64,000 bases of DNA from Pseudogymnoascus verrucosus (taxonomy: Eukaryota): the NCBI GenBank assembly GCA_001662655.1, contig KV460211.1. The stretch is one strand, 5' to 3'. The translations under genes and the position numbers were made by a program. How positions within the stretch are numbered: position 1 is the first letter of the stretch; every line of letters begins with the position of its first letter. Below the pieces are notes generated by a model, which saw only the letters and a list, made by a program, of their open reading frames with translations, did no database searches and was not told where the DNA came from. Below, piece after piece: positions 11,934 through 56,965 of this stretch.

Positions 11934-13240
11934 CTTGACGGGTTGGTGGGATGAGTGAGTTTCTGTGGTATCTGTGGTGTTTTGGCCTCTGGGGTGAGCA
12001 GCGGCGGCGAGGATGGTGGAGGAGGAGGGCAGATATCTCTATCTAATCGGCGCTAGTGGTGGGGGTGGAGAAAATGTTGTGTTTATTTTCTGTATTTACA
12101 GGGGTATTTTCAGTGACGTCGGATTTAGCATAATTTACATAAATAGAAGTGTATAAATATAGAATCACGTGGAATCACGTGGTATTTGCATAAAATTCGG
12201 TTAGTGTCTTGGTGGAAAAGCTTGGCTGTTGCCTTGTGGAGCTCGGAGTGTACCCGAAGAAAAAAGGGTTTATCCGAGAGGTTTCTCCGATATTTTTATA
12301 CCAACACTAACCACATTTATCCAGTTTACCACATTAGAACAACAAAGATCCTAAATTGGTATACGAGGTTACATGGTATATTTTCCCAATAGCCACGAAT
12401 CCCTACACCTAAGATTGTGGCTGAGCAGTCAATAAGTGACGCACGGCGACTCTCCGCAATTCTAGATCCCTCATCCCCGTGAAGCAAATGTGAAACTCAA
12501 CGGGATACGTTGGAGTGTCTCATTTCACGCCCTGTTTCTTTTTTGTCATACTCTCCGCCCCGTGCACAATACCACCAGAGCGCGCCATGCCGCTGTGTGT
12601 TTGTGGTCTTGCCTGCTCACCCTACTGCGTACTGAAATCCTTGCAGTTACAATGAGATACTGTGTCTAGCAGGCTCTAACGGAAGAACAAGCTTTCTTGA
12701 CCACCGAGTTAGTGACTTGGTGGCGGGGACCAACGTCCCCGTCTCAGGGACAAATCCCAGACATCCCAACGCCGTCGGAAGTTACAGCTGTACGCGGAGT
12801 TACCTGCAATATGCAATATGCAATATGTACTCCGTACTGCAAATCCTGTGGGGTATCGTATCCACGACGAATGGGCGGCCACAAGCCGATCTCCCGACAT
12901 CCGGACATCCAGCCAAATCAATATCCTTCATACCATTTACTAACTGTAAACACGAATTGTGCTGACACCCTATGACTTGTACCTCCGCGGTTAGGTTCAC
13001 AATTCCCTCCCCCAACCCAATTGCAAGCTGATATCCCCCCTAAACGGTAAGGAAGCCGGTATCCCAGCCTGCGCTTGTTGTAATTTGCCTGTGCTTGCTC
13101 ACCCTAGCAAACGCGTACCCCCTCAAAAGCGTTCATCTCCCCCATCCATCTACATCCCTCCCATTTCTCTTTCCTCTGGTCAAAACACACTCTTTTTTAT
13201 CTTTCTTCGTTTACTGCCAAGCAGTTTCCATTTAGCAGCC

Positions 13241-14994
13241 ATGAAGGGCTCCGCCATTCGTTCCGTGTCCGCGCTCTTTGCTGCAGCGAGCCTCTTCGGC
13301 GCTGCCAGTGCTACCCTCGATCCGGTCATTATCAAGGTGAGATCGATCCGAGGTTCCGTTCTTCAGTCACCTCAACTAACCATTCCTCTCACCAATCCAG
13401 GGTTCAAAATTCTTCTACAAGACCAACGGCACCCAGTTCTTCATCAAGGGCGTCGCCTACCAGGAAGGTGTCGGCGCCGCTGGAACATCCAGCGGAAGCA
13501 GCAGTACTGGTACTATACATTCTCTCTCCATCGCACGTCGGAAAAGCGACAAAACGAGCCAATACTGATTTATATACAGCCACATACAGCGACCCCCTCG
13601 CAAACGAAGCAGCCTGCACGCGTGATGTCCCACTCCTCCAAGCCCTCGGCGCCAATGTCATCCGAACCTATGCCATCGACCCCACCGCCGATCACTCAGC
13701 ATGCATGAAGCTCCTCGACACCGCCGGCATCTACGTGATCAGCGATCTGGGCCAGCCCAACCTCTCCATCAACCGCGAGAACCCAGAATGGAACCTCGAT
13801 CTCTACGACCGCTACACCTCCGTGATTGACTCGCTCGCCAAGTACTCCAATGTCATTGGCTTCTTCGCCGGTAACGAGGTGACCAACAATGCCTCCTACA
13901 CCCCCGCCTCCGCCTTCGTCAAGGCCTCCATCCGCGACACAAAGGCCTACATCAAAGCCAAGGGCTACACCGCGGGCGTCGGCTATGCCGCTGATGACGA
14001 TGCCACCACCCGCGCCCACGTAGCCGCCTACTTCAACTGCGGTGATGTCGCCGACACCATCGACTTCTGGGGCTACAATATCTACTCCTGGTGCGACCCG
14101 TCCAACTACGTGACCTCAGGATACCAGAACCACACCGAGACCTTCGCGTCCTACAACGTCCCCGTCTTCTTCGCCGAGTACGGCTGCAACGAGGGCACTG
14201 CCAGCGGCTCCGGGTCGCGCGACTTCAGCGAGGTCGCTGCGCTTTACGGGACGGATATGTCCAAGGTCTTCTCGGGAGGAATCGTCTACGAGTATTTCCA
14301 GGAGGTGAACGACTACGGTCTCGTCACCCTCACCGGAAACACCGTCTCGAAACTAAAGGACTACGACAACTTCTCCACCAAGATCCACGCCGTCTCCCCC
14401 TCCTCGGTCAACTCAGCAAGCTACTCCCCCACCAACACCGCCGGAGAGGCCTGCCCAACCGTCAACGACCAGTGGAAAGTCGCCGCCACCGGCCTCCCGC
14501 CCACCCCCAACGCCGCGGTGTGCAACTGCATGACTTCCTCCCTGAAGTGCGTTGCCAAGCCCAACCTCCCCCTGGACGACCTCGCCAAGCTCTTCAACAC
14601 CGTGTGTGGTCTCTCCGCTAGCGCTTGCTCTGGTTTCGTGGCCGATACTGCCAGTGGCGCATACGGCGCGTATCTGGGCTGCAGCGATCACGACAAGCTT
14701 TCCAACGCTTTTAACGCCTACTACCTTGAGCAGAACAGCAAGGCCGATGCTTGCGATTTCGGCGGTAGCGCGTCGGTGGTGGCGAGCCCTACCCCAGCGT
14801 CGTCGTGTGAGAGCATTATTGCTTCCGCTACGAACGCCGCGCCGGCGGGAACTTCTACTGGAGGCTCTGGTAGTGGAACCGACACCAGCAGCGATAAGAG
14901 CGCGGCGAACTCGGTGCATATGTTCGGGGGATGGGGAATTGCTGCCTGGATGACTGCTGTGGTTGTTTCGGTTGCAGGGCTTGTAGTGTTGTAG
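13241..14994 (+). CDS. GH72 beta-1,3-glucanosyltransferase (Gel/Gas family) with X8/CBM43 domain and GPI anchor
   Basis: Signal peptide MKGSAIRSVSALFAAASLFGAASA, then FFIKGVAYQ, GFFAGNEV, GYNIYSWC and PVFFAEYGCN. A Cys-rich X8 domain precedes a Ser/Thr tail and hydrophobic C-terminus. Introns at about 13337-13400 and 13510-13579. Confidence 0.95.
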
Positions 14995-21058: not shown

Positions 21059-24000
21059 ATGGCGTCAAGGTGAGTTTCATCGTCCCGCCACCCAAGTCTC
21101 ATATACTAATAATATCTATAGATTGGATCGATTGGTCACGTAAGTTCACTCAGTCGCTGATGAAGGCGATCCGCACTTTCCTCTGTGTATACTAATAATA
21201 TGTAGGCTACTGGAAACAGGAAGCACCCCATTAATCAGAAACACTGCAGCCCAGCAGCTCGCAGATGTTCAAAAGGCTCACCCCGATGACCTATTCAGCT
21301 TATTGTCAAGGGTCGTCCCATACCTGCACCACAGGACATGGGAGACCCGAGTCGCAGCTGCCAAAGCTCTAGGTGGCATCGTTGAAAATGCCGAGAAGTA
21401 TGACCCTAACGAGGATGAGGCCAAGGATGAATCTATGATCATCGAGGACGAGTCCTCATCCCTCGTAAAAACCGAGGATAAGAGCGAGAACAGTCTCGCG
21501 AATGTTGACGGATTCCGCTTGGCCCTCGAGAACCTTGACATTTCTCAAGTGCTGAAATATGGCAAGGAGCTCGCTCGAGGAACAGGCAGAGGGTACGAGT
21601 TTGCTCTGGCGCGTCTGGATCCCTCGGAACGCCTGGCCCACAAGAAAAAGACTCTGCCAACTCGGCTTGGTCTGAGAGGTAAATTCCATGAGGATGACCT
21701 CTGTATGGACATCGACATCATTCCCGTCCCAACTACCGTCTCTCCCCCACCCAGTGACCAGACCAACGGAAATTCAGGGTCACATGAAGATTCTAAGTGC
21801 TCCGAGACTACTTCTGCAGCCAATGGCGATAGTGGTCTCAGCGCACGCCAGCTTAATGTGCTGAAGCGAAAGCGCAAGCGTGAGGCCCTCCAGGCGGGGA
21901 GCAAGAACCGTCTCGTGGATCTGTCGGGAAAGAAGCCTAGCATTTCCACTGAAGATGCCGCCATGCCAGACGAATCCACCGGGGAGGAAGAGTCGAACGG
22001 CAAAGTCAAGGACTACTTCTCGCTCGACAGACCTGCCGAGGTGGAGGAAGACACCAAGGTCGTCTCAGAGTTCAAGGGCCCGATCGTCCCAGTCAAATCC
22101 GAGATCCAAGAGGACGAAGAGTCTGCAGGTGCAGAATGGCCTTTCGAGAGACTGTGCGAACTTCTCATGGTCAACCTATTCGACTCCTGTTGGGAGGTTC
22201 GACACGGAGCATCTCTTGGTCTCCGTGAAATCATCCGCGTCCACGGACACGGCGCTGGCCGCGCTCGTGGCAAGTCTCGGACTGAAAACGACCGTCTTAA
22301 CAGGCAATGGCTTGACGATTTGGCGTGCAGACTTTGCTGCGTGCTCACGCTCGACAGATTCGGAGATTACGTGTCGGACAATGTTGTGGCGCCCATTCGC
22401 GAGTCGATCGGCCAGACTCTCGGTGCGCTCCTCTCGCATCTCCCGTCGTTGAGTGTTTACGCTGTATTCCGCATCCTTCTACAGATGGTGATGCAGGATG
22501 AGCTCGGACTGGACCGCCCTGCCTGGGCTGTCTGCCACGGCGGTATGATTGGACTCCGTTACCTCGTCGCAGTCCGCAACGACCTTCTCCTCAAAGACGG
22601 AGGCCTCATCGACGGAGTCATCCGAGCTGTTATGAAAGGCCTCGGCGATGCCGACGATGATGTACGATCCGTTAGCGCGGCAACCCTCATCCCAATCGCG
22701 CAGGATTTCGTCAACCTCCGCCCCGAGAAACTGAAGGATTTAATCGAGATCGTTTGGATGTGTTTGATGGACTTGGGAGATGATCTGAGCGCTAGCACGG
22801 GCCAGATCATGGATCTTTTGGCCAAGCTTTGCAGTTACCCCGAGGTCTTGGAGGCGATGAAGGTCAATGCCTTGGAAGATCCGGATCAGTCGTTCGCCGA
22901 GCTTGTGCCTAGACTCTACCCGTTCCTGCGACACACCATTACATCGGTTCGCTCGGCTGTTCTCAGGGCCTTGCTCACCTTTGTCCATATCGAGGGCGAA
23001 GGCACACGCGGGTGGCTCAACGGCCGTACCCTTCGTCTTGTCTACCAAAATATCCTAGTCGAGCGCAACGAAGATACTCTCCGACTCTCTCTACAGGTAT
23101 GGACGGCACTAGTCACGTACATGTCGAAACAAGATGTGTCCGCCCTCGCCGCCGAGTTCGCTCCACATGTCGAGCCCCTATTGCAGCTATCGCTCCATCC
23201 CATCGGCGTCTCGAGGCATCCTCTCCCAATGAACCCGACGTTGTTTATGCGCCCTTCAGGATCGAGCTACAGCATGCCAGCTCACCTCGCACGCCAACTA
23301 TCGCCTACTTCAGCCACTCAAGAGCCCTCTGCTAAGCGCCGCAGAAAGTCCGCAAAGCAAGTTGAGGCAGCTCCTTCGTCATCTCACGACGTGGACGGCC
23401 ACATGATGCAAGGTGATGTCGATCTCGTCGGCATGGATATCTTGATCCGTTCGAGAATCTCGGCAGCCAAGGCAATGGGTCTCCTACTGTCTCTCCTCCC
23501 TGTCAGTGACTTAGGCGTCTATGACACCGCAATCCTGCAAGGTCTCTCGTCCTCGTTCGCATCAACGCAACTCGCATCCGCGGCAATCATAGACGAGTAC
23601 GCCAAGAACTCCGAATCCAAAGACACCGTGTCCCGCTTCAAGGAGCCCCTCCAGACAATCACCGAAAGCGACAGACCCGCCCACTACCGCGATCTCGTCA
23701 GCTTCATCCAGCTCGTCCGCGCGCAATGCGCCGCACTACTCAACACATTCCGCGACATTGGCAAAGCATCTCAAAGCAGACTCCCCACGCTCGCCGTGGT
23801 GTGCCAGGGCGAGGCCGAGGCGGGTCCAGATGCTTTCTCCATCATCAACGCGGATAAGTGCGTCAATGAAGATTTCGAGAGGCTGAAGAAGTCGCTTTCG
23901 GGAGCGCAGAAGTTGATCGCTAAGGATGCTCTTAATGAGGCGAGGGAGAACGCTGTGACGGCTATTGAGAACGCGAAGGCGATGAAGCTGCATCGCGATA

Positions 24001-26922
24001 TTCGCGTCAAGTCTGCGGCTGCTGGTGCGCTGGTGTCGATGGGCGCGGCGCCGAAGAAGCCGTCTAATACGATTAAGGCTCTCATGGATAGCATCAAGAA
24101 GGAGGATAACCTCGAGTTGCAGCGCCGCTCTGCACTGTCCGTTGCGCAGCTCGTCCAGCTATTCGCTCTGTCGGGCCGTCGCGGACCAGCTGACAAGATC
24201 GTCTCCAACCTCGCCAAGTACTGCTGTATTGACACAGCCGAGACGCCCGAGTTCACTCCCAACGCAGAGCTGCGCACTGCAATCTTGTCCCTGCGTAAAG
24301 AGGAGGATAGAAAGGACCACGTCGATGCAGCCAAGTTCGCGCGTGAGGCGAAGGAGGCGCGTATTATGCGTCGCGGTGCCAAGGAGGCCCTGGAGCAACT
24401 GTCTGATATCTTTGGCGCTGATCTACTGGAGCAAGTTCCAACGCTGAAGGGCGTTATGAATGATGCCCTGACGCAAGTCTTCGTGGGCGATTTGCCTGAG
24501 GAGGCGAAGGATCCCGAGAAGCCGCTGGGCCAAGACGTCATTGATGGGATGTCGGTTCTGCGCGCTCTGACGCCGACGTTGCACAAGGATCTTCATCCAT
24601 TCGTTATGGGTCTGCTTCCTTTGGTTGTTAAGGCGCTCCATTCCGAGCTGTCTGTTTTCAGATATATGGCTGCCAAGTGCCTTGCTACGGTTTGCAGTGT
24701 CATCACTGTTGATGCCATGACGATGTTGGTTGAGAAGGTATTGCCCTCGATCAGCAATCCTCTGGACCTGAACTTCAGACAGGGTGCTACGGAGTGCATT
24801 TACCATCTCATTCACGTCATGGGTGATAATATCCTACCATACGTTATTTTCCTCATCGTGCCTGTTCTGGGTCGCATGAGCGACTCTGACAATGACGTCC
24901 GTCTGATCGCAACCACCACGTTCGCCACGCTCGTCAAGCTCGTACCTCTCGAAGCCGGTATCCCCGATCCCCCAGGATTGTCAGAGGAACTCCTCAAGGG
25001 CCGCGATCGCGAGCGTACATTCATCGCACAGCTCCTCGATCCGCACAAGGTCGAGCCTTTCGTTATCCCGGTCGCTATCAAGGCCGAACTCCGCTCTTAC
25101 CAGCAGGAGGGTGTTAACTGGCTCAACTTCCTCAACAAGTACCATCTGCACGGCATTCTTTGCGACGACATGGGTCTCGGAAAGACGCTCCAGACGTTGT
25201 GTATGGTGGCTAGTGACCATCATCTACGTGCGGAGGAATTCAAGAAGACGGGTGCTTTGGAGCTTCGCAAGATGCCTACGCTTATTGTCTGCCCGCCAAC
25301 ACTCTCTGGTCATTGGCAGCAAGAGATTAGGACGTACGCACCATTCTTGACATGCACGGCATACGTTGGCCCACCCAATGAGCGCAGCAAGGTCCGCGAT
25401 CAGCTTGACAAGACGGATGTGGTTATCACCTCGTACGATATCTGCCGTAACGACGCCGAAGTGCTCGCGCCCATCAACTGGAACTACCTCGTCCTGGACG
25501 AGGGCCACTTGATCAAGAACCCGCGCGCCAAGGTCACCATCGCAGTCAAGCGCCTGCTGTCCAACCACCGACTTATTCTCTCCGGTACGCCCATCCAGAA
25601 CAACGTGTTGGAGCTATGGTCGCTCTTCGACTTCCTCATGCCCGGCTTCCTCGGCGCCGAAAAAGTCTTCCTCGACCGCTTTGCCAAACCCATCGCCGCA
25701 TCCCGCTTTGGCAAGCCCTCTTCCAAAGAGCAAGAAGCCGGCGCCCTCGCCATCGAAGCGCTACACAAACAAGTCCTGCCCTTCCTCCTGCGCCGCCTCA
25801 AGGAAGAAGTCCTCGACGACCTCCCCCCCAAGATCCTACAGAACTACTACTGCGACCTCTCTCCCCTGCAAAAGAAGCTCTTCGAAGACTTCACCAAGAA
25901 GAACGGGAAGACGCTCGCGGAGAAGGCGTCGGCGGGCGATAAGGACTCGAAACAGCATATTTTCCAGGCCTTGCAATATATGCGCAAGCTGTGCAATTCG
26001 CCGGCGCTTGTTATGAAGGAGGGACATAAGCAGTATGCAGAGACGCAGGCTTACCTCGCTAAGAATAATACTTCGCTCTCGGATCCTGTGCATGCGCCTA
26101 AGCTCACGGCCCTCCGCGATCTTCTTGTCGACTGCGGTATTGGACGCGAACCCGCTCCAGGGGAACTGGCTGGTACCGCGGCTGTGTCGCCGCATCGCGC
26201 GCTGATCTTCTGTCAGATGAAGGAGATGCTTGAGATGGTGCAAAGCGAGGTGCTGCGGAAGATGCTTCCGGGGGTGACATCACTCCGTCTTGACGGTGGG
26301 GTGGAGGCCAACAAGCGCCAGGATATCGTGAACAAGTTCAACAGCGATCCATCTATCGATGTGCTCCTCCTGACGACGTCGGTTGGTGGCTTGGGTCTGA
26401 ATTTGACCGGTGCTGATACAGTTATCTTCGTGGAGCATGATTGGAATCCGCAGAAGGATTTGCAGGCTATGGATCGCGCGCATAGAATTGGGCAGAAGAA
26501 GGTGGTTAATGTGTATCGATTGATTACGCGTGGGACGCTTGAGGAGAAGATTATGTCGTATGTACCCCTTAATAATACCCCCAGTGAAATCAGAAAACTA
26601 ACATCTCGTCTGCAGTCTCCAACGCTTCAAAATCGACGTCGCCTCTACGGTCGTCAATCAGCAGAACGCCGGCCTTGCTACTATGGAAACAGATCAGATC
26701 CTCGACCTCTTCCAGCTCTCAGATGAGGTGCCTGGGCTCGTGCCTCCAAACGCCGCGGGGGCCGCGGCAAAGGAAGGCGAAGAGGATGCGGTGGATGCGA
26801 CGGGTGAGGTTAGGGAGAAGGGGAAGAAGGGGTATCTGGATGAGATTGGGGAGTTGTGGGAGGAGGGGCTGTATGAGGAGGAGTTTAGTCTGGATGGGTT
26901 TTTGGGGAGGATGAAGGGGTAG
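21059..26922 (+). CDS. MOT1: TBP-associated SNF2-family ATPase Mot1/BTAF1
   Basis: The spliced N-terminus is MASRLDRLVTLLETGST...AAQQLADVQK, built from two micro-exons. HEAT repeats follow, then GILCDDMGLGKT, DEGH, LSGTPIQNN and QAMDRAHRIGQ. The last intron is at about 26558-26615. Confidence 0.97.
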
Positions 26923-42641: not shown

Positions 42642-44208
42642 GATTGCCTGTCGGACAGCTTGGTCGAGGTTGCTGATGAAAGTTGTCGATAGTGGTGATA
42701 ACAATGATGCAAGCAGAGAAGTGTATACGAATTTAGCTCGGACTTTATACTTATTTGTAGGAATGAGACAAGAATCTGTTGGCCCTAATCTGCATTACCT
42801 TCACACTGAGTAATGCGTAAGTAATCATTGCGAGGCCATCCACACAAAACGAACGTCTTACCGTAATGAGCAAGTATTGCGAGGCTTGTTGTATGTAGAC
42901 AAGGCTATGGTTCTTCTGCCTTAGGGGCTGCTGCTAGTTCCATTAAGGCATCTATACAGCAGACTGCTAGTTGTATAGATTCATAGGTTGAAGTTGGGAA
43001 ACTTTTCGAAGAACTCAGTACTAGAGATGCTCACTAAACTTGTCCTACTAAAATACTCTGCATGGACGCTTGTAGGGATAATCGAGCCAAGTGCTAGCTC
43101 CGAATATTACTATGGCTCTAGATTGATGATAGCATTTTCTTAATTAGTATTATTAGCAACTGCAGCAACTATAAAACCAGTATGGAGTAATTTTAATTAT
43201 CTAATGCTGCTTATCCTACGCCTCTAAGGTAGGTGAGCCAAACAAATCACACATAAATGGTAGGAAAATCTACTGAATGCAGTGTGATAAGGCCTGTTGA
43301 CAGCAATATAAAGCTCCCGGTGGCAAGGCACCTCTCTTACCTACTACAGGAAAATAAATCAAGTACAATGCTTCTTGACAGCAATATAAGCACTAACTAG
43401 TAGACAGCCAACGTTGTCGCAAAAATATCCAGATCTAGTTAGTATAGTGTAGCCAAATAAAACTTATCGCGGAACAAAACACGTGAACATGTGCCTAGAC
43501 CGTACATTTTAAAGAGCATAATTGGCTTTAAAAAGTAGACTATGAGCTGGAGAAGGTAGATCCTTAGGCTTGGGTGTTTATGGACATGATTTTGTCACGT
43601 GAATTTTTCATTAGACTAGCGCTCAGTTTATTCTCCGAGCCTACACGTGACCCCGTTATGAACGCAGAGTATTGGAGGAAGTACCGGAATACAAGGACCG
43701 CACCGGTTGTATGGTGTTTCCAGTGGCTAGGGCTTCTAACTTTGGCGCAACGGGCAAGAAGCTTAACAGTATATACAGTATTTAGAATAAATAGATGGCA
43801 TAAGGTATAACTTCGAAAACCACCAGTCGCCGCCAAATAGTCCCGAGACGGAAGGCGGCTTAGTGAAGCGCTTAGGCTAATTTGTAAGATATCCTATTTA
43901 GGAGATTTTTGAGAGCCAATGAGAATTCCTTTCTAAATCTACCAGTACGAGATTACGGACTTAATGTCGCCCATACATCAATCTTATACTCTGGTGTTGA
44001 AAAACTGAGGTTAAAAATGCTGGTATATTTCTAAGCATTACTTACTATATTTTACAAATCAAAGATGCTATGGAGCAAGTTAATACAGGGCTGTCTTCAA
44101 CATGATATATAGTTTTAAGTGGCAGTTAAAGTGAAATAACCGCCCCGACTAAAATATAAGTTAACTCAAGATTTTTAGGAGCTAATATTTTAGTTGCAGT
44201 TACTTGCA

Positions 44209-46179
44209 ATGACTTCTCATGAGGCTCGAAATTCCGAGTCCGGCATTCTTGACCACGCTTCCAAACCAGTTGATTCCCAGAAAGGAATATGTAGCTGTCG
44301 TTTGCAAGAAACTTCTATTGTTCAATGGATAGATGAATCAATCCATCTAGGCTCAGTCGACAAACACCTGGCTCCCGCTGGTGTTGATGGATACGAAGTC
44401 CGGTTCAGCGGAAGCAGCGACAGGCAGGATCCAAGAAACTTTAGCAAGGCTACAAAATGGATCATTGTGATTGTCCTCTCTCTATCTTCAGCATCAGTGT
44501 AAGATCCCATTCGCATGGTTGAATTTCTGCATGCTTACAGCTCTGCGCGACAGGGCTTGCGATTCTGCCTTATACACGACTACCTACGATCAAATTATGG
44601 TCGAGTTTCACTGTTCAAAACTTGCGGCTACAGCTGGACTCTCGACATTTATTTTAGGAATGGGGATCTCGCCCTTGTTTCTCTCGCCACTCTCGGAGGT
44701 TTCTGCTCCATCTCCATTGCCGTACTTCCTTAACTGACTTGATTTAGTTCTATGGAAGGCGGCCAATATACATTATCTCATTAACATCCAGCTTAATTTG
44801 GTTGGTACTTTGTGCAGTCGCAAAGAACATCCAGACTATGGTAATAGCCCGCCTTTTGGGTGGTCTGTCTGGAGCAGCATTTCTTAGTGTTGCAGGAGCA
44901 AGTGTAGGGGATCTTTTTGATCATCACGAGCTCCAGTTTCCCATGACCATATACTCCGGAATCCAATTCATGGGCCCCGAGTTAGGTCCGATAGTAGGTG
45001 GATTTATCAACTACAATGCAACCTGGTAATAGAGCTCCTTACAGATCTCCCTGATTCTCATTTATTTGAGACTCGTTCAAGGCCTGTTGCTGACTGATAA
45101 TAGGCATTGGACATACTATTTCATGCTCATATGGACTGGCTTTGCACTCGTTTTGACCTTGGTCTTTGTGCCAGAGACTTATCATCCTGTATTACTTCTC
45201 AAGAGAGCCGAAAAGCTCCGAAAGAAGACAGGAGACGACCGATATCATGTTGGGAGTGGTCTGAGACAAACAAAATCAGTGCTAGAAACCATAACGTGGT
45301 CATTTCTTCGCCCACTTGAAATGCTACTGTTCGAGCCCATGTGCTTGAGTCTTTGTATGCACTCTTCCCTTCTTCTTGGAATTTTATACCTCTTTTTTGG
45401 CGCCTTTCCCTTGGTATTTGCCACCAACCATGGGTTCAACATATGGCAAGTTGGCTTGACATTCCTAGGTTTAGCCATTGGGATTCTATTTGGCATTTCC
45501 ACGACTCCGTACTGGCAAAAGAATTACCAACAGCTAGTGAAAAATCGACATACTGAGGATAGTGAGGATGGCAAGCCCGAGCCAGAGTACCGCTTGCCTC
45601 AAGTTATAGTAGGTGCTGTTTTGGTACCAGCTGGTTTATTCTGGTTTGGCTTTACAACATACACATCAGTCCATTGGATTGTTCCAGTAATTGGTAGCGG
45701 GCTCTTCGGGATGGGGTAAATAGCATTACGTCCCATGTTTCGCACAAGCAGCAGCTAATTTTTAGGTGCAGCGTATTTCTCTCGTTTTCAGGCACCTGGA
45801 CATTTTTAGTTGATGCATATCCTTTATACGCTGCAAGCGCACTTGCTGCCAACAGTTTTGCTAGAAGCACCTTTGCGGCTATCTTTCCTTTATTTGGCAT
45901 TCAAAGTGAGTAACTCTAGTTAGAGTAATGAACACATCCTTGGTAGAACGTTGTTAACCATACCCTTAGTGTACGAAAGGCTTGGTTTTGACTGGGCTAC
46001 GGCGGTGCTAGCCTTCATTACTCTAGCGATGATTCCTTTCCCGTAAGATTTACCTTACTGCACAGAAACTTCTCGAGATGTTAATCTGAATTGTTTTTTA
46101 CAGATTTATATTCTTTAAGTATGGGAAGAAGATCCGAGGCAAGAGTCGATTCGCCTCGACATTTGAAGGAGCAAAATGA
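44209..46179 (+). CDS. MFS transporter, DHA1 drug:H+ antiporter-like
   Basis: DPRNFSKATKW, LSPLSE/FYGRRPIY, GPELGPIVGGFI, PETYHPVLL and PEPEYRL. Multiple introns. Ends ...STFEGAK*. Confidence 0.9.
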
Positions 46180-46915: not shown

Positions 46916-49034
46916 TCACAACAACGTGACCCCCGTCCTCGTAACGCCCGCCCCTACCGCCACCGTCCCAAAATAACTCCTCACTGTCACGCTTGCTGGC
47001 TGCGGTGTGCTCCTCGCAGCATACGTGTACACCCCCGGCCCCGCCCTCGTCATTAGCACCTCCGCTCCATTTCCAAAGCGACACTTCATGCTCGCGCTAG
47101 CGTCAACAAGCTCCGTACGCACCGTTACGGCAACGGTCCCGCTCTGCTTGCTTTGCCACGTGAATGTTTCGATCACGGGGTGGTCGATGGACGTCTTGTC
47201 CGCGGTGATGACAATGGTGTCATTTGCCACGCTGCCGGAGGGGACATGGGTGATGAGCAGGAGGAACTCGCGGACCTCGTTGGTGGTGCCGAGGTTGACG
47301 GGGAGGTTGAGAGTGGTGACCGTTGCGTCGGGAGAGGCGATCTCGATGTTAATGATCGAACCACCAATTTGAGACCATTTATATGCGAGGTCTGCAGTGG
47401 GGATATTTGGAGCGGTTTGTGCGCCGCTGAGAGTGACGCGTACACCGCCGCGGACTGTCTGGTCAGAACCTGCGTCGACGATGAGGGGGACGGGGGTTAT
47501 AGTCGGAACTACTGTGGTTGTGGCTGTTACCACTTCAGTCCCGGTCTCCGTTGGCTCTGGAATTTCTGTGGTGGCGCTGACGGATGTGACGGGATCGGTA
47601 CAAATAGAAATAGGGGTGGGAGGCGTCGCACCAGGCCAGGGAGTAAGTTGCCTGAATATTTTGCCGCTCGAATAGGGTCCGAATCCGTTGGCAAGCGGAC
47701 CAATGCCCGAGAAGTCGAGCGGTGGGTTGACGGCCCCGGGTGTGATGACTTCGGGGAAAATCCATTCTGTAACTGGCTGAACGTACTGCCCAGAGAGAAT
47801 TCCGTTTGTGGTGAGTTTCTGGCCTGACGCAAGCTTCACGCGGTAGTTTCGAGTGTAGTATCCAATATCCTGGCGGTCGGAGCGCCACTCCCACTTGGAT
47901 CTGCCCCCGGCGACGTTTTCGGGAATCGCACTCCCAATGAGTCGATCGGATTCCACGCCTGTACATGGGTTAATGTCGATGGCATAGATGGATACTAGCG
48001 TGTTCGGATCCGTTGTATAGCCTACAAACTGTTGAGAGTTTAGATTGTATCCAAAGACAGGGTGAGGGATGCTCCTACTCTGGCTCTGGCAAATTCAACG
48101 TCAGGATTGTTATTAATGACGCCGATAAGTGCATCTTCAACCAAGATGAACCCTGGTGCTGTGCCGGCAGTCGTGTAGATTCCAACGTTCGCAGTGAGCG
48201 CGTAGCAGAGCAATTCTCCACCAAACTCAATATATGAGAATTCGACATAATCGCCCACTTTTAGTGGTGCCATTAGCATCGGATTCGGTACAAAGCTATA
48301 CATATTAGCTTCCCGGTACCACAGTAGCTAACTGATAAACTTACTAGTTCTTTGGATTAGGCACAGCGGTTGGCCTGTTACTCTGCGGACAAAGAGGGTC
48401 ATCGCCGGATCGAGGCACGCACATGGGAAAGCCACCAAAGCTCGTAATAGAGGGATTCTCATCGTCAGCTGTGAAGAATGGGACGGCCGTTGTTCCAGAG
48501 CTATATCTCGCCCGAGGATCGTTGATACGAATCGTTGGTCCGTGAAGGAGTTTGATGGCTCCATCGAAACTTAAGCTCTCTATAATTCCATTCGAGGCCT
48601 GTAGGCTGAGTTGGGACACAGCCATCTGGCCCGCAATGATTGTTTCGCCAACAACGTTCCCGGTAATCTATAAGACTTAGTATTCTTGTTTACAGAATGA
48701 GATATAATAATTTGGCTTACGGAAACTTCATTTGGGCCTGCTCGATCACCTGCTGCAAACTCTGCGAAGGGTACCTGTGCTGCGGGAAAATCGACAAGCA
48801 AGTTGTCGGGAATTCGAATGTTATATCCGCTAACGCTCACAGAGCCACCAGAGTTAACCTCTGTGCCTATGACATTTACACTTTGAAACTATGTCAGTGG
48901 ACTTCTTGGGACGTAGCTAAAGTGGCTGCATACCTGCCCAGAATTCCTACCACCGTGAAGGGATACACTGCGGGCTGTCCTACCACCAATGTAGGGGCAA
49001 ATGCTGCAACCAAGAGACAGAATGAGAGCAACAT
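46916..49034 (-). CDS. Secreted uncharacterised protein with Thr-rich linker and C-terminal PKD/Ig-like beta domains
   Basis: Signal peptide MLLSFCLLVAAFAPTLVVG. Exons include IRIPDNLLVDFPA, IRINDPRARYS, DDENPSITSFGGFPMCVPRSGDDPLCPQSNRP, PLKVGDYVEFS and GQYVQPVTEWIFPE. VDAGSDQTV...VTLSG...YKWSQIGG is PKD-like. About four introns. Confidence 0.8.
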
Positions 49035-50051
49035 TCCGCGTCAAAGCAGAAAAGACTAAGACAGGACCTGCTAAAAGACAGTAGCAGTAGCTCTATAACT
49101 TTGTAGCCGCAGTCCTCGATTGGTATGGGCACGCGGAAGGAGGATCGTTGGGGAGAGAGTGTCAGATAGCTCCCGAGTGACTACCGATTGTGCCAACAGG
49201 CATGGCGCTTCCTAGGTTATATCATTGCAGCGTCGAATTTCAAACACCAAAGTCAAAAGCAAGGAGAGGCGCTCGCCACAGTCACGCCCATCTCTATCAT
49301 TGACCAATTTTCTCTAAAACTAACGCGGCAGATGTGGAATACTCCGACCGCCAAGCTCGCCCTGTAGTCTCGACTGAGTGTAAGTAATCCTCCCGTACTA
49401 TCGATTTCTCAATTCAGAAGAATATGTTCGTGTTTTGCAAAATACCAAGTAAGGCTACATTTCCATCTGTAGACCCAGGTAAACTCCCGCAGAAGATGGA
49501 TCCTCGTCTAAACGACCCTACATGAGACGACAACAAAGCTGAATATGAGAAATGACGGCTTCGTGTATGTCCCGTCCCGTAGACAGTGGCGTTCATTACT
49601 GTATGTACACGCGTGACTCAACAAGAAGCTGAACGAAAGTAGTCGAGGGTGGCCTAGATTATTGACAGTAACGGAGGGTCGCATCGATTGGGCCTCTTGG
49701 CCTCGCCTTGTCTCATGTCGCCAATATTTATCGCGTGCGCTGTGTCCCTCAAGGCGCCAAGATGTCTTATGGGGACGCCAATGTGCTACTATAGGTCGTA
49801 GGGGCCAACGTGGGGAAAGGCATCATGCTCGGGAAGATGCGCGACAGTACATGGCGTAGCCACGTATCCCTCGTCTGATAGATTCCTCTCTATTCCAAGT
49901 TCCAATGGTCGATTCTCCGGGGGCGAACGACGTAATGTGGGACGATCTCGTGTTAGGCCCTGTATCCCTTCTATTCAAATGCCACTCCACAAGGGGATTG
50001 GGATTGGACTAAATCAGCGGTCAACCCGAACGACAGCACGGCTGGCAGCAC

Positions 50052-50172
50052 GGCACGACACGGCTCCAAAACTCCACGTCTTGGCGCTTGTGGCACGACA
50101 GGGCTCCAAAACTCCACGTCTTGGCGCTTGTTGGCACGACACGGCTCCAAAACTCCACGTCTTGGCGCTTGT
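50052..50172. repeat. Tandem repeat, 40-bp unit x3
   Basis: GGCACGACA(C/G)GGCTCCAAAACTCCACGTCTTGGCGCTTGT at 50052, 50092 and 50133. Confidence 0.95.
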
Positions 50173-51647
50173 GGGCAAGCAGCCATTACGACCATTACGA
50201 AAAACGCCAAGCAGTTCGGGGTACAGTAACCTAGTCCTCTGATCGACGACGAGGCACTCTATTTTCGGCACTTGTACGCATCCTAGAAGAGTCGCTGCAA
50301 AGTTATATTGCACTGTTGCATGGCGGCGGCACTTTCCGCCTTCAGTTCGGTGTCAAATCGGCTCTTGACAGTCCATAGCCCAATCAAGAAGAGAAACGCT
50401 ACTAAGACCGTGCCCACAGTGCCCATCCACGGTTCGTCCCCGCGAGCCTCAACATGGCTGGTTTTGGTCGTCGCCAAGTTCCCAGGGCGAGTGGCTGGAC
50501 CAATTCTTCTCTCAGGGCGCCTTCGCATGCTGTGGTCTAGACCTGGCGCCTGCTCTTGCTTGGAGACGCCTTGTTACACAGCCGTGGCTTCTCTGATTTG
50601 ACCTGATATGCGCCAAGCACGTCGGAATTTTCGTTTTTGTAGAAGCGAGTTTGGCCAACCCAGCGCCTCCAAAGTGGAAGTTAGCTGATGTGGCGCTAAG
50701 CCCTACCACATCCAGTGCTAGAGTGGCAGCTGTGCTGCAAGCTAGGCTGTCAATAGTTCAGCCGACTTTCCATGCTGTCCGTCTTTCACCGCTCTATTAA
50801 CCTTACCATTGGGAGGAAGCCTCATGAGGTGCTCTTAGTAGAGTAGAGTGGAGTGTGTCATATAGCCTATCTGCATGAAGAGGATCAGCCATGCCGTGCT
50901 TCGCACGATTTCCGTGCGGGGGGGACGTGGGATAGCCCTAACTGGCCGCATGTGGCATATGCGCCTTAGATGCTGATGAGACTTGTTCTGTGCGCTTTGG
51001 CTTCGCGTCGCTCTCAGGACGGCTTCCAACAATAGGAATCACATCCAGGCCCAATGGACAGAGGGGGTCCCGATGATGACCTGAGAAATGACGCCCAAAT
51101 CAGCCTCTTAAAACATCCGCTATAGGCTGTAGTCTGGACGAAAACTGACCGTCTCTCGCTTCATATTTCCTCTTCCTCGTCTTGCACCAAAGCAGTTCAA
51201 TTCGCCCCATTCGGGGTCAGGCGGTCTAATCCCACCATGCCGACTGCGTCCAGATCTGACATGATACTCCATTCTGTTGGGACAGCGTGAGTTCGTTGCC
51301 TTTTGCCGAGCTGATGAGATAGAAGTCTGTTATTTCTTTCCACCTCCCTCGCAAGTTATGCCCCACTTTTGGCTATCTTTCCTGAAGCTTGATACTGTTA
51401 GACACTCCGATCGATATTTGCTCTACTATTCTGTTCGACCCACCACCCATAACAGATAATATGACGTGGATGCCACTACTCTACTCTGTCATGACCCTCT
51501 AATATCATGTTTGAAAGTATAAGTCTCGCCTCTCGTGTCATATTAAACAAAAACTTAATATACTGAGAACTCACCAATCGATTTCTTGGTGGTTAACATT
51601 CAACATTTTTGATCAAAATTACGGACTTTTGCGCCACTATATATAAC

Positions 51648-53490
51648 ATGGCGAGGCTCTCGTCGTGTATCATCTTGTGTCTTGCTCTATGCTCTCCTTC
51701 CCTGGCAGGAGATAGTGCTTGGCTGAGCCCCGTCTACAAAGAGATCTACGCGCGTCCTCTTCCCATTCCGCCGGACAAGGTCCCAAAACAGTAAGTTCAC
51801 ACCATCTGTGATCTGACTTTCGTTGTCAGTTGACGCGTTACAGTACGTGGACCAACTCCACCACCGGACAGATCATCAATTACTACGAGGTCGATATAAA
51901 GCCTTTTCAGCAACAAGTATACTCCAACCTTGGCAAAGCAAACTTGGTTGGCTACGATGGTATATCACCTGGGCCTACCTTCCGCATGGAGAGGGGGCAA
52001 GAGGCTGTGGTCAGGTTCATTAATCATGGAACTTTAAATAGTTCGGTCCATCTTCATGGATCATATAGTAAGTTGCTGAGACAGCATTGATATGTCATCA
52101 TGCTGAATAATTATTTTAGGTCGAGCACCATTTGATGGATGGGCTGAGGATACAACCGCCCCGGGTCAGTACAAAGATTACTACTACCCAAATAATCAAC
52201 GAGGTCGAACCCTCTGGTACCATGTAAGTAGACCATATCTGTCTCAATGTCACGCACTTATCCATACTCTAGGACCATGCTGTTCATCATACGGCTGAAA
52301 ATGCCTACTTCGGCCAGGCTGGATTCTACATCCTCCATGATCCAGCAGAAGACCGTTTTGGCCTCCCAGCTGGCAAGTATGACGTCCCTCTCACAATCAG
52401 CTCCAAGCAATATAAATCCAACGGCGACCTCTTCTCACCCGCTTCCGAGCTCACGAGTCTCTGGGGCGACGTCATCCACATGAACGGCCAACCATGGCCT
52501 TACTTCAAAGTCGAGCCTCGGAAATACCGCTTCCGCCTCCTCGATTCAGCCATTAGCCGTTCATTCCAGCTATACTTTGAGAAAGACACGAAGACGGGCA
52601 CAAAGCTCCCTTTTAAAGTCATTGCCTCTGACGCTGGCCTTCTCTCCGGCCCAGTTACCGCTACCTTGCTTGAGATCTCCATGGCCGAGCGCTACGAAAT
52701 CATCTTCGACTTCTCTGCTTACGCAAATACTAACGTGACCATGCGTAATAACCGCGACGTGCAAGCTGACGAAGACTACAACTCCACTGACAAAGTCATG
52801 AAATTCATTGTCGGCGGCACCATAACTGACACTACGAACAACGGCGAAGTGCCCGCCGTCTTCGACCCCCTTGTCCTCCCTCCCCCAAAGACAAACGTCG
52901 ACCGGACGTTCAAGTTCGGGCGCAATAACGGCGAGTGGAGAGTCAACGGCGTCTCTTTCTCCGATGTCAATAACCGGATCCTCGCGAAGCCGAAGCGTGG
53001 CTCCGTCGAGCTGTGGGAGCTGCAGAATGACTCGGGTGGTTGGTCGCATCCGGTGCACATCCACCTCGTCGACTTCCAGGTTGTGTCGCGCAAGGACGGT
53101 AAGAGGCCTGTGCTGCCCTACGAGGCCGCGGGGCTAAAGGACGTGGTGCTCCTCGGTACTAACGAGAAGGTGCGTGTGCTGGCGCGCTATGCGCCTTGGG
53201 ATGGGGTGTACATGTTCCACTGCCACAATTTGATTCATGAGGACCATGATATGATGGCTGCGTTTAATGTCAGCGTGTTGCCAGACTTTGGCTACCCAGA
53301 GACGACTAAGTTTATTGACCCCATGGAGGAACGGTGGCGGAGCAAGGGGTGGGATGACGCGAAATTCACCGAACAGTATATCAAGGGGACGTTGCTGCCG
53401 CAATTTTCGGGGTTAGATGCGTATGATAAGGCGGAAGAGACAGAAGAGGCCCTAGAGGAGTATTGGGATAACGATGGGAATGATGATTGA
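51648..53490 (+). CDS. Secreted multicopper oxidase, bilirubin oxidase/CotA type
   Basis: Signal peptide plus all four copper-binding motifs: VHLHG, TLWYHDH (split by an intron), HPVHIHL and HCHNLIHEDHDMM with an axial Met. FDGWAED is also present. Confidence 0.95.
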
Positions 53491-53897
53491 CTGTATTAAT
53501 TCGATATGATTTATTCAACATTAGTGTGTTACGAGCCTTGTTTATTAATAATCGAGAAAAGAGATAGAGGTGGCAACGGTTCTGCTGCTAGGTACAAATG
53601 TATATGTTCTACCCCACCTATAGCTCACAAATAGCGAATTATCCCAATAATAGGGGCAAAAGCGCCCTTAATATGGTAGGTAAGCTAAGACAGCTAAACA
53701 GTGTTGATATGAAAATGACACAAAATTGACGCTAAACTAACATAAGAATGTTGCTTTCCTTACTCACCCCGCTCACCCTTCTCAACCCTCGCCTCGCCTC
53801 GCCTTTCAGGCGGCAAGGGACTGCGATTCCGCGCTATGCCTATTGGCACGATTGAGGCTATCATCCAGCTATTAAAATAATATCAAAAAAATCAAAA

Positions 53898-54016
53898 ACA
53901 TACAACAGTGGGTATTCGCTGGTGGTCACCCACCCAACTACTAATCCACCGATCTCAAGCTTGTGTATGGCAGAGCGGACGGGATGCCCAATTCTCTTGA
54001 GTCTATGGTCGTATGT
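53898..54016 (-). rRNA. 5S ribosomal RNA (dispersed copy)
   Basis: 119 nt: ACATACGACCATAG...CATCCCGTCCGCTCTGCC...GATTAGTAGTTGGGTGGGTGACCACCAGCGAATACCCACTGTTGTATGT, followed by an oligo-T Pol III terminator. Confidence 0.95.
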
Positions 54017-54822: not shown

Positions 54823-56364
54823 TCAAGGTTTATCAGTGGTCATAATTGATATTATTTCGCCTGGATCGTAGCCCCAAGCTCGCTCGAGATCTTTAAGTCT
54901 CCACATAGCGCCCCATCCGGTAGTCTTGTCGATGATCTTAAAGAGTCTGGCCACAGCGAGATGCTCGCTTCGATGACTAAGAAGCTTGCCCGCGATGTAT
55001 AAAGGCTGAATTGCATTGATGAGGTTGGCACTATGTGGGTTAGTCAATGAAATTCCACAGACCCTTCTGGCGTGCCAAACAGCCGACCATTGTGGCATCG
55101 ACGACCGTGGTAGTCTGTCCGCAGGTCTGATCTCCAGCATTATGATACAGGCAGTGTGGTACAATTGATTGCTCGAGATTGCAGCCCAATGAGCAAACAA
55201 AATTTCTGGGAAGATCTGGCCACTGCCAGTTCCTGTTGTCTTGATCGGTAGTATTGCCGGGGGACGTTGTTCATTCCAATATTGTAGCTCGTCCCATAAC
55301 CGATTCCACTGCTCAATAGATGGCCGAGAGTCGTATTCATCCAATTCGCCTAACTCCAGGTACCTTGTTCGCCTGCACGCTAGATCACAAGTCTTAGCGC
55401 ACAAGTACACAGCCCAATTTGCGTGCATATCAGGAACCAGACGGCTTTTCTGGAAGAACGCGTCTTTGATTAACTCCTCTTCCCTCTCTTTTGAGCCTGG
55501 ACTCTCAGACATTATAGGGGTCCATTTATCAATATGAAGCACGGTACTCTCCGCCCCGTCGGAAACAATTGCTCCACACAACTCCATGCGAGCATAACAC
55601 CAGAAAACGGCCTGTAAAAGACCTCCGGAAAACCCGTTAATATTAAAATAATCAAATAGAGCAGCACAGCCCTCAATATGACGTCTCCAATCCCTCGGGC
55701 TCACAGACATCAACTCAAGGCAGGCGAGAATGCAGACTGTGACAAGCACATTCGGATCTTTGGCTTGCAGAGACGGGGCCAAGAGTCTGATGGACTCTTG
55801 GTAGAGTTCAAGACTATCATGGGACTTTTCAAGGCCAGTTTTTCTTTCAGTTTGTCGAGCTGAAAATGCTAGAATTGCGTAAAATAACGCTGGCGAGCCA
55901 TGCGCTACAATTGGGACCTGGACGCCGAAATGTCGTGCCTCGTCGAACTTGTCGAGGTACGGGGCGCATTCGGAAATCCAATTCTTTAGATAGTTGATTA
56001 ATCTGGCCTTTGGAATTGATACTCTTGTAAAATCCAAGCTTTGCGTTGACAGTTCTGGAGCAGGTACATTGACGGGCTCGGAGTGTGCGGGCGAATTGTA
56101 CCTGCTGGGAGCGAGACTGGCAACACCAGTGAAAACAACGGCTCGTAGTTCTTCTTGTAGATCGAGGAAGCGGGGGTTTGCAGCATACTCATCAACGCTC
56201 GACAGCTTACCTGGCGAAAAAAAGGCATCTTCCTCGATCAAGGGAGTTGCACCTTCATAGAGCGGCGCTATTGGGGCTCTTTCGTCATCGGCTGAGCGAA
56301 ACATTGGGGCGGCCGAATCATTCATCTCAAGCATACCTCTAGGGCGATGTTTGAACTTCGTCAC
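54823..56364 (-). CDS. Fungal-specific transcription factor domain protein (no zinc cluster visible)
   Basis: YLKNWISECAPYLDKFD, ALFYAILAFSARQ, WRRHIEG, AVFWCYARM and AISSNQLYHTACI. The first in-frame ATG is at about 56334, so the 5' end is uncertain. Confidence 0.8.
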   Translation of the reverse strand: MTKFKHRPRGMLEMNDSAAPMFRSADDERAPIAPLYEGATPLIEEDAFFSPGKLSSVDEYAANPRFLDLQEELRAVVFTGVASLAPSRYNSPAHSEPVNVPAPELSTQSLDFTRVSIPKARLINYLKNWISECAPYLDKFDEARHFGVQVPIVAHGSPALFYAILAFSARQTERKTGLEKSHDSLELYQESIRLLAPSLQAKDPNVLVTVCILACLELMSVSPRDWRRHIEGCAALFDYFNINGFSGGLLQAVFWCYARMELCGAIVSDGAESTVLHIDKWTPIMSESPGSKEREEELIKDAFFQKSRLVPDMHANWAVYLCAKTCDLACRRTRYLELGELDEYDSRPSIEQWNRLWDELQYWNEQRPPAILPIKTTGTGSGQIFPEILFAHWAAISSNQLYHTACIIMLEIRPADRLPRSSMPQWSAVWHARRVCGISLTNPHSANLINAIQPLYIAGKLLSHRSEHLAVARLFKIIDKTTGWGAMWRLKDLERAWGYDPGEIISIMTTDKP

Positions 56365-56965
56365 ATTTATAGCCCGACGTGCAAACTGTGGAGTCCGGTA
56401 ACATGTTCAAGGTCTGTGCATAGTGTGAACGGGTTGAGGAGAAAATATGGTCCAGACCGACATAACTAGCTTTGTGAAGGCATCAGCCACAAATCGAGGT
56501 TTTTCCGTTCCGTTGAGCTTTTCCGCTTTGGTGAGCTGGGGACAAGACTTCAAGTCGACATATCATATGGTTGTACGTTACCGTCAATGCCTCGAGAGTA
56601 GGAGATAAAAGTGGGAGCCAATTTCAACCACGACATATCACGGAAACAATTAAGGAAGAAATAGAACTAGTGTCTTTAGGGCTTAAAGCTAGACATAGCA
56701 AAATCTATAAAACAGGCGTATTTCTAGGCAATTTAATTTGATGGATAACTTGAAACGAAATACTATGGTAAGAGGATTCTGCAGAAAACTGTACAAGTAC
56801 TAGTAGTAGATCATTCTGTATAAAGCGACTAATTATAATACTCGGCAATATGCATACATTTCCTCCTTCAGACCATCACCCCTGCCTTACCTCCGCCTTG
56901 TATCTATTCCATGTACTAGAACAGTACAGGATCGGCTTTAGCTCGGTTCCTTAAAAGTTCGATTA

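Follow-up and report, generated by a model that had tools for sequence, protein, structure and literature searches.

Two genes that lie head-to-head on contig KV460211.1 of Pseudogymnoascus verrucosus (GenBank assembly GCA_001662655.1) are described here. The contig was analysed over a stretch of 64,000 nucleotides, called the window below; coordinates given with no other locus refer to it. The gene on the plus strand (51648..53490) encodes a bilirubin-oxidase-type multicopper oxidase of 562 amino acids (aa). The gene on the minus strand (46916..49034) encodes a secreted protein of 637 aa that belongs to an unnamed family and is called the partner here. An earlier note, made from the sequence alone, had placed two head-to-head genes at 46916..53490; we verified these coordinates and rebuilt both gene models from the sequence. 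The evidence presented below suggests that the partner is a working companion of oxidases of this type.

The partner gene has five exons (48934–49034, 48721–48880, 48345–48667, 48079–48295 and 46916–48028), with the start ATG at 49034–49032 and the stop codon at 46916–46918. Its coding length of 1,911 bases yields 637 aa, which is the length of P0001, a hypothetical protein (637 aa) from Pseudogymnoascus sp. 23342-1-I1; P0001 is 97% identical to the partner last-exon query over 95% of the query. The oxidase gene has four exons (51648–51790, 51844–52067, 52120–52223 and 52273–53490), starts with the ATG at 51648 and ends with the stop codon at 53488–53490. Protein P0336 from Pseudogymnoascus sp. 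VKM F-4518 has the same length as the window oxidase (562 aa) and is 98% identical to its exon 4.

GT..AG joints at six of the seven introns of the two genes were seen in contigs of runs X1 and X2: 48028/48079, 48295/48345 and 48880/48934 in the partner gene, and 51790/51844, 52067/52120 and 52223/52273 in the oxidase gene. At the seventh intron (48668–48720) a loose contig end at 48667 continues into exon 2. Runs X1 and X2 come from the same study, and the contigs of their source organism are mostly 95–99% alike to the window; the two runs were taken as RNA solely because their contigs lack introns, no run being recorded as RNA. As these contigs join across introns, the same runs indicate transcription of both genes and support the splicing of the models. 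The signal peptides that the earlier note had assigned to both proteins correspond to N-terminal hydrophobic, signal-like segments (MLLSFCLLVAAFAPTLVVGQ and MARLSSCIILCLALCSPSLAG), as judged by eye from the sequence.

The oxidase contains the Pfam domains Cu-oxidase_3, Cu-oxidase and Cu-oxidase_2. Its exon 4 matches the bilirubin oxidase of Myrothecium verrucaria (PDB 2xll) with E 2.4e-138 and CotA with E 7e-48; P0336, used as a full-length stand-in, matches 6iqz and 2xll with about E 1e-197 over residues 25–525. All four motifs that define a three-domain multicopper oxidase of the bilirubin oxidase (BOD)/CotA type (HxH, HxH, HxxHxH and HCHxxxHxxxxM) are complete in the window protein, as HLH, HDH, HPVHIH and HCHNLIHEDHDM. 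They are invariant in 25 fungal relatives and align to those of the solved bilirubin oxidase 6iqz, in agreement with the earlier statement that every copper ligand is intact. With the Myrothecium enzyme (2xll, 6iqz) the window oxidase shares the copper motifs and the W-x-H motif (W-S-HPVHIH), but it carries an extra acidic C-terminal tail of 37 residues. Judged by its sequence, the window oxidase is an ordinary intact member of the bilirubin oxidase group. In the literature we found no description of a companion protein for the solved enzymes.

The architecture of the partner was read from an AlphaFold2 model of the whole protein (20 homologues, predicted local distance difference test [pLDDT] 80). 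From the N terminus, the model has a signal-like segment, an all-beta region, a disordered linker, a PKD domain and a last immunoglobulin (Ig)-like domain. The all-beta N-terminal domain (residues 21–413; 47591..48974, minus strand, with four introns inside) holds the conserved motifs and four conserved Cys. It is followed by a linker that is rich in Thr and Pro by its sequence (residues 414–443; 47501..47590, minus strand; pLDDT <50), by the PKD domain (residues 444–546; 47192..47500, minus strand) and by the C-terminal Ig-like beta-sandwich (residues 547–637; 46919..47191, minus strand). Thus the Thr-rich linker and the beta-rich C-terminal domains proposed earlier are both seen in the model.

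For the PKD domain, the match to Pfam PF22352 (K319L-like PKD) has 21.8 bits (E 2e-4) and falls under the gathering cut-off of 27 bits; several fungal and most bacterial homologues pass this cut-off. Fold comparison with VIA-align assigns the domain to the PKD type: it matches 2yhg with Z 11.0 (99 residues, root-mean-square deviation 2.9), the PKD domain 2yrl with Z 10.5 and the AAVR PKD domain 7wjx with Z 9.8. The partner family profile matches 2yrl with E 2.3e-6. Residues 547–637 are matched by Ig-like domains at Z ∼8, and this C-terminal block, kept from fungi to bacteria, can be aligned with the bacterial members of the family.

Because fold searches with the whole protein gave only generic Ig-repeat matches, the N-terminal domain (393 residues) was folded alone with AlphaFold2 (40 sequences), which gave pLDDT 92.4 and a predicted template modelling (TM) score of 0.88. 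Compared with 48,161 PDB representatives, this model had a best match of only Z 5.9 over 72 residues; the weak PDB matches are OB-fold-like pieces at model residues 1–90 and 91–214. The best Foldseek match had E 7.7e-4 and a TM score of 0.14, and the Foldseek matches did not go beyond TM scores of 0.14 to 0.19. The sequence of the domain has no match in Pfam (E up to 10), in NCBIfam or in the PDB sequence profile, and the ESM Atlas returned automatic names only. The domain is outside the named families, and as a whole it matches none of the solved folds.

The motifs of the N-terminal domain quoted in the earlier note are all present and are among the best conserved columns of the family. Alignments of 20 to 40 fungal and bacterial homologues show little or no variation in RINDP, DDENPSI, FPMCVPR and DPLCPQSNRP; these motifs and the four Cys make up the most conserved columns, among which there is no His.

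Fungal members of the partner family were found in Leotiomycetes, Dothideomycetes and Sordariomycetes. Bacterial members share with them the N-terminal domain, the PKD domains and the last Ig-like block. A profile search of 1.84 billion representatives was dominated by multi-PKD proteins and was used just to gather proteins that hold the N-terminal domain. The bacterial members are numerous, with 1,204 proteins at E 1e-10 among 7,999 scored candidates. Their source names are limited to ‘hypothetical’, ‘PKD domain-containing’ and ‘K319-like’. Titled genome records with family members come from Acidobacteriota, Methylococcales, Cupriavidus, Herbaspirillum, Actinomycetota, Myxococcota, Chloroflexota and others. 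Fungal and bacterial members are parted by one branch, with a Shimodaira–Hasegawa-like approximate likelihood ratio test (SH-aLRT) value of 100, in a quick maximum-likelihood tree built from 25 fungal and 22 bacterial rows. One bacterial relative, P0044, ends with a Gly/Cys-rich stretch, a hydrophobic stretch and an Arg-rich tail, and matches the C-terminal parts of models for myxosortase- and rhombosortase-dependent proteins; by its sequence, this tail points to surface anchoring.

According to the earlier note, a tie between the two proteins would be contradicted if homologues of the partner were unlinked to multicopper oxidases elsewhere. Such linkage was found in two further fungal lineages and in many bacterial loci. 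In a tblastn search with the window oxidase, 37 fungal metagenome loci that carry the partner yielded an oxidase with 56–62% identity in L021 and in L029, L030 and L031. In these loci the oxidase is on the opposite strand, ∼2.5 kb upstream of the partner match (∼2.0 kb start to start). The partners of L029–L031 are 86–87% identical to the partner of Aureobasidium subglaciale; L021 represents a fungal lineage separate from the Aureobasidium-like loci. Thus, with the window included, the pair is head-to-head and ∼2 to 2.6 kb apart in three fungal lineages. The genes that flank the pair in the window (for an MFS transporter, a transcription factor and a sugar transporter) have no match in L021 or L029–L031, so only the pair is common to these loci. 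In the partner tree, lineages that keep the pair lie on either side of the first split in the fungal clade; the pattern fits an ancestral pair that was broken up repeatedly.

Some side observations were made on other fungal loci. For P0005, a partner homologue (55% identical), and P0342, a bilirubin oxidase (79% identical), a JGI contig of 34,496 bp is recorded in each case; if the contig is the same for both, this may be a further instance of linkage. In L021 a haem peroxidase gene (PF00141; 2458–3720, minus strand) adjoins the oxidase, and in the Aureobasidium-like locus L030 a ferric reductase gene (PF01794, PF08022, PF08030; 6545–8119, minus strand) adjoins the partner.

Bacterial loci were obtained by scanning genome contigs with the bacterial profile (the fungal profile gave no matches), and from metagenomes. 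Neighbours were counted within the flanks available for each partner locus, and the loci are non-independent samples. A multicopper oxidase lies near the partner in 32 of 77 genome loci (17/28 of those of at least 18 kb) and in 19 of 39 bacterial metagenome loci (14/18 of those of at least 10 kb). The corresponding counts for a di-haem CCP/MauG gene are 38/77 (17/28 of the long genome loci) and 30/39 (17/18 of the long metagenome loci), and for SCO1/SenC 23/77 (10/28) and 15/39 (13/18). Three of the four long metagenome loci that lack an oxidase (L038, L048 and L058) stop at the position where it would be expected. For comparison, five of these genomes (3.3 to 10.2 Mb) contain 4 to 14 cupredoxin-domain matches each; by simple arithmetic, an oxidase would be met by chance in ∼1–5% of random 22-kb stretches.

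The usual operon, established by Pfam domains at six loci, contains the partner, a di-haem CCP/MauG-like gene, a partner paralogue, an oxidase of ∼740–780 aa and SCO1/SenC, which is often fused to cytochrome c; gene order is permuted in some clades. Two diverged partner paralogues flank the di-haem gene in L049 (5567–15853), L035 (4112–14719) and L107 (5020–16183; Cupriavidus ulmosensis). L049 has the oxidase, a SCO1–cytochrome c fusion and, beside the operon, a sigma-54 activator; oxidase and SCO1 are also present in L036, L107 and L144. The link between partner and oxidase spans several gene orders and several phyla: an oxidase was found in 18 of 37 loci of Acidobacteriota, 6 of 10 of Methylococcales, both loci of Betaproteobacteria and 5 of 12 of Actinomycetota, and in none of eight of Myxococcota. 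A Methylomirabilis locus gave one partial match for the partner–oxidase neighbourhood. In Actinomycetota (oxidase in L119, L120, L122, L136 and L139) neither the di-haem gene nor SCO1/SenC was seen in any of the 12 loci. There, as in fungi, the link between partner and oxidase stands without the haem enzyme.

The oxidases linked to the partner in bacteria are related to each other. Thirteen of them form one clade (SH-aLRT 98), which is joined by three more oxidases of the same genomes (one of them on the same contig as L107) and is set apart from seven other oxidases of those genomes. The fungal enzyme can be aligned from end to end with one partner-linked bacterial oxidase (29% identity, E 4e-47); the alignment includes the W-x-H and C-terminal FIDP motifs.

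The intergenic region shared by the two window genes (49035..51647) is 2,613 bp long from ATG to ATG. The 2.6-kb distance given in the earlier note is thus correct, with the qualification that contigs of run X3 show transcription of a part of the region (49146–49918). These contigs cover ∼770 bp upstream of the partner start, in which no convincing reading frame was found; they may stem from a long 5′ leader of the partner or from a distinct transcript. A tandem repeat at 50052–50177 has three copies of 40/41 bp with 95% matches, each unit including a CTTGGC (GCCAAG) site. In run X6, which is from a relative, the DNA contigs are interrupted at this repeat.

The region contains ten sites of the form GCCARG, which we take to be the PacC-type consensus; three of them are inside the 41-bp repeat. 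The density of GCCARG in the whole window is 1.28 per kb. A count of ten was reached in none of 300 Markov simulations and in no other 2,613-bp stretch of the 64-kb window. The matching regions of L021 (7951–10000) and L029 (2251–4288) have six and seven sites, counts reached in 8/300 and 6/300 simulations. Only two 9-mers (each taken with its reverse complement) are common to all three regions, and one of them contains GCCARG. Motifs of Mac1-type, Ace1-type copper-responsive, metal-response, CreA and GATA sites were not enriched in the intergenic regions. The enrichment of GCCARG is a lead for possible alkaline-pH control and not an established finding.

Several known systems resemble the pair in part. 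The Bacillus Mnx manganese oxidase complex (MnxG with MnxE and MnxF) is a multicopper oxidase that depends on co-encoded accessory proteins; the comparison with the partner is an analogy only. MnxE and MnxF are small proteins; the partner, in contrast, is not a small single-domain protein, having 637 residues in four structural parts, and it goes with a different class of oxidase. The iodide oxidase (IOX) of Iodidimonas sp. Q-1 co-purifies as the multicopper oxidase IoxA and the 71-kDa protein IoxC of unknown function; IOX is also reported for Roseovarius sp. A-2, and the ioxABCDEF cluster includes three SCO1/SenC genes (PMC9415286). The bacterial homologues of the partner resemble IoxC in size (∼70 kDa) and in neighbourhood, being encoded beside an oxidase and SCO1/SenC. 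In the fungal locus the oxidase is present, but a scan of 20 large reading frames of the window found neither a SCO1/SenC nor a CCP_MauG domain. The description of the iox cluster in PMC9415286 names no di-haem enzyme. In Pseudomonas putida GB-1 the mcoA operon combines mcoA with SCO1/SenC under sigma-54 control by MnxR (PMC11409713, Table 4). Bacterial partner loci share this oxidase–SCO1/SenC pair, and L049 has a sigma-54 activator as well.

On balance, we think it probable that the two genes constitute one extracellular module, in which a secreted oxidase is accompanied by a secreted modular, non-catalytic protein that is kept with such oxidases and would be made from a promoter shared by the two window genes. 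Since the two families also adjoin each other in other fungi and in numerous operons of bacteria, the partner is probably a working companion of these enzymes. The functional tie that was the core of the earlier note thus gains support from linkage in two other fungal lineages, from bacterial loci of several phyla and from transcription in the same runs. The pair would be ancient and, since the fungal companions form one clade, it probably entered the ancestor of filamentous ascomycetes as a unit. In the fungus both genes would be under joint control of the divergent promoter, and PacC-type sites may make this control respond to alkaline pH. Companion and oxidase would serve one extracellular process, in which the N-terminal domain of the companion most likely holds either the enzyme or the substrate of the enzyme (a metal ion or a polymer), while the linker with the PKD and Ig-like part reaches to or from the cell surface. 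The more specific roles put forward in the earlier note, those of a scaffold, an anchor or a mineral-nucleating subunit of a metal-oxidation system, would be conjecture at this stage.

Mn(II), a phenolic compound or others are candidate substrates. Bilirubin oxidases have been put forward as candidate Mn(II) oxidases in Acremonium, Stagonospora and Paraconiothyrium (PMC7902709). As enzymes of this type are thus candidates for Mn(II) oxidation in ascomycetes, manganese is a possible substrate here.

Several observations weigh against a single module. An oxidase was found in only 4 of the 37 fungal metagenome loci (3/20 of those of at least 10 kb), from two lineages, and in none of the Helotiales-like or Pleosporales-like loci. 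Locus tags of the partner and the bilirubin oxidase listed for each species are distant in Coleophoma crateriformis (partner BP5796_10082, bilirubin oxidase BP5796_05506) and in Diplodia seriata (SLS55_001829 and SLS55_010522). Since the genes lie apart in most fungal relatives, adjacency is not required. In bacteria, besides the eight loci of Myxococcota, the long loci L042, L084 and L106 have no oxidase near the partner, and the oxidase tree does not settle if the partner-linked bacterial clade has the fungal enzymes as its sister group. Expression is known from contigs only, which indicate presence and neither level nor co-variation. Other stretches of L021 and L029 hold GCCARG counts similar to those of their intergenic regions. 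For the Pseudomonas mcoA and mnxG operons, Table 4 of PMC11409713 gives neither a di-haem gene nor one whose annotation resembles that of the partner. Finally, Supplementary Tables 1 and 3 for the Mn(II)-oxidising native-gel bands with bilirubin oxidase (Stagonospora and Paraconiothyrium) have no entry that fits a partner of ∼620 aa, a comparison made by size only, the BLAST raw scores of unannotated entries being 173 to 441.

Part of these observations would also be expected if the two genes were relic neighbours: of joint ancient origin, with products that are now independent in the fungus and with a head-to-head order that survives by inertia in a few lineages. The loss of adjacency in most fungal loci, the distant tags in the two named species and the lack of a partner-like protein, by size, in the gel-band tables all agree with this scenario. 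It has more difficulty with the fungal loci that did keep the pair, as these two are the only window genes common to loci of different fungal classes, with the same orientation and similar spacing, and with the bacterial link, which recurs in several gene orders and phyla. We regard the relic scenario as unlikely. The partner could instead share nothing but regulation, for example by pH, with the oxidase and be an independent protein that binds the cell wall or polysaccharides (adhesion). A secreted protein composed of modules, among them a Thr-rich linker, a PKD and an Ig-like domain, would suit such a role, some automatic names of relatives mention N-terminal domains of chitinase or beta-1,3-glucanase, and the excess of GCCARG sites in the shared promoter is compatible with common pH control. 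Yet no carbohydrate-binding or glycoside-hydrolase family was detected in the partner at any Pfam threshold, and the repeated bacterial operons with oxidase, copper chaperone and di-haem enzyme would be left unexplained, which makes an independent adhesion protein very improbable.

A further explanation makes the partner the object of oxidation. The MauG-like enzymes CorB and MbnH mature the proteins encoded next to them, MopE/CorA and MbnP, respectively. By analogy, the partner would be secreted and turned by oxidation into a metal-binding or cross-linked surface protein; in bacteria the di-haem MauG-like enzyme would bring about this maturation, in fungi perhaps the copper oxidase. In bacteria the arrangement of genes speaks for it: the CCP/MauG gene, directly beside the partner in 38/77 genome and 30/39 metagenome loci, is its tightest neighbour (17/18 of the long metagenome loci), two partner paralogues flank this gene, and a copper chaperone is in the same operon. 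The fungal window, in contrast, has no CCP_MauG domain among the 20 scanned frames, and in Actinomycetota the oxidase occurs (5/12) where the di-haem gene does not (0/12). The alignments of the partner family have no invariant Trp or His. MopE- and MbnP-like folds were not among the 50 best structural matches listed for the partner, nor were the two proteins among its listed sequence matches, although such lists do not amount to an exclusion. Taken together, maturation of the partner by either enzyme seems distinctly unlikely.

Other genes of the window provide the genomic context. An MFS (major facilitator superfamily) transporter gene (44200–46000, plus strand) adjoins the 3′ end of the partner gene, and a gene for a fungal-specific transcription factor (54823–56406, minus strand) adjoins the 3′ end of the oxidase gene. 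Further away are genes for a GH72 glucanosyltransferase with an X8 domain (13108–14991, plus strand) and for a large SNF2/HEAT (DUF3535) ATPase (21144–26723, plus strand). No core gene of secondary metabolism was seen among the scanned genes of the window. Downstream of the oxidase, a short and highly repeated element (53779–54000, core 53856–53956) has a word depth of ∼11,330 in run X6 and many differing joints; no tRNA was found near this high-depth repeat at 53.8–54.0 kb.

The idea of one extracellular module also has a stronger form, which we regard as rather unlikely. The companion would then be an obligatory second subunit or specificity factor of the whole clade of BOD/CotA-like oxidases, the module would have been transferred from bacteria to the ascomycete ancestor, and the N-terminal domain with its new fold would capture the substrate (most attractively Mn(II)) or template the product at the surface. 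If this were true, work on the fungal ‘bilirubin oxidase’ Mn oxidase and on the bacterial McoA- and IOX-like enzymes would have examined half of a two-protein machine.

As predicted from sequence, the pair would fall into a familiar class, that of multicopper oxidases which have an accessory protein of their own; for this particular pairing of oxidase and companion we found no description in the literature. Enzymes of the bilirubin oxidase type are used in biofuel cells and diagnostics and count as candidate manganese oxidases in soil ascomycetes, and their bacterial relatives drive the oxidation of manganese and iodide. An unnamed protein family that accompanies them across kingdoms would be an extra component to consider when such oxidases are expressed, assayed or deleted. 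It would also mark a route to their physiological substrate, and the pair as a whole may represent two genes that were transferred together between bacteria and fungi.

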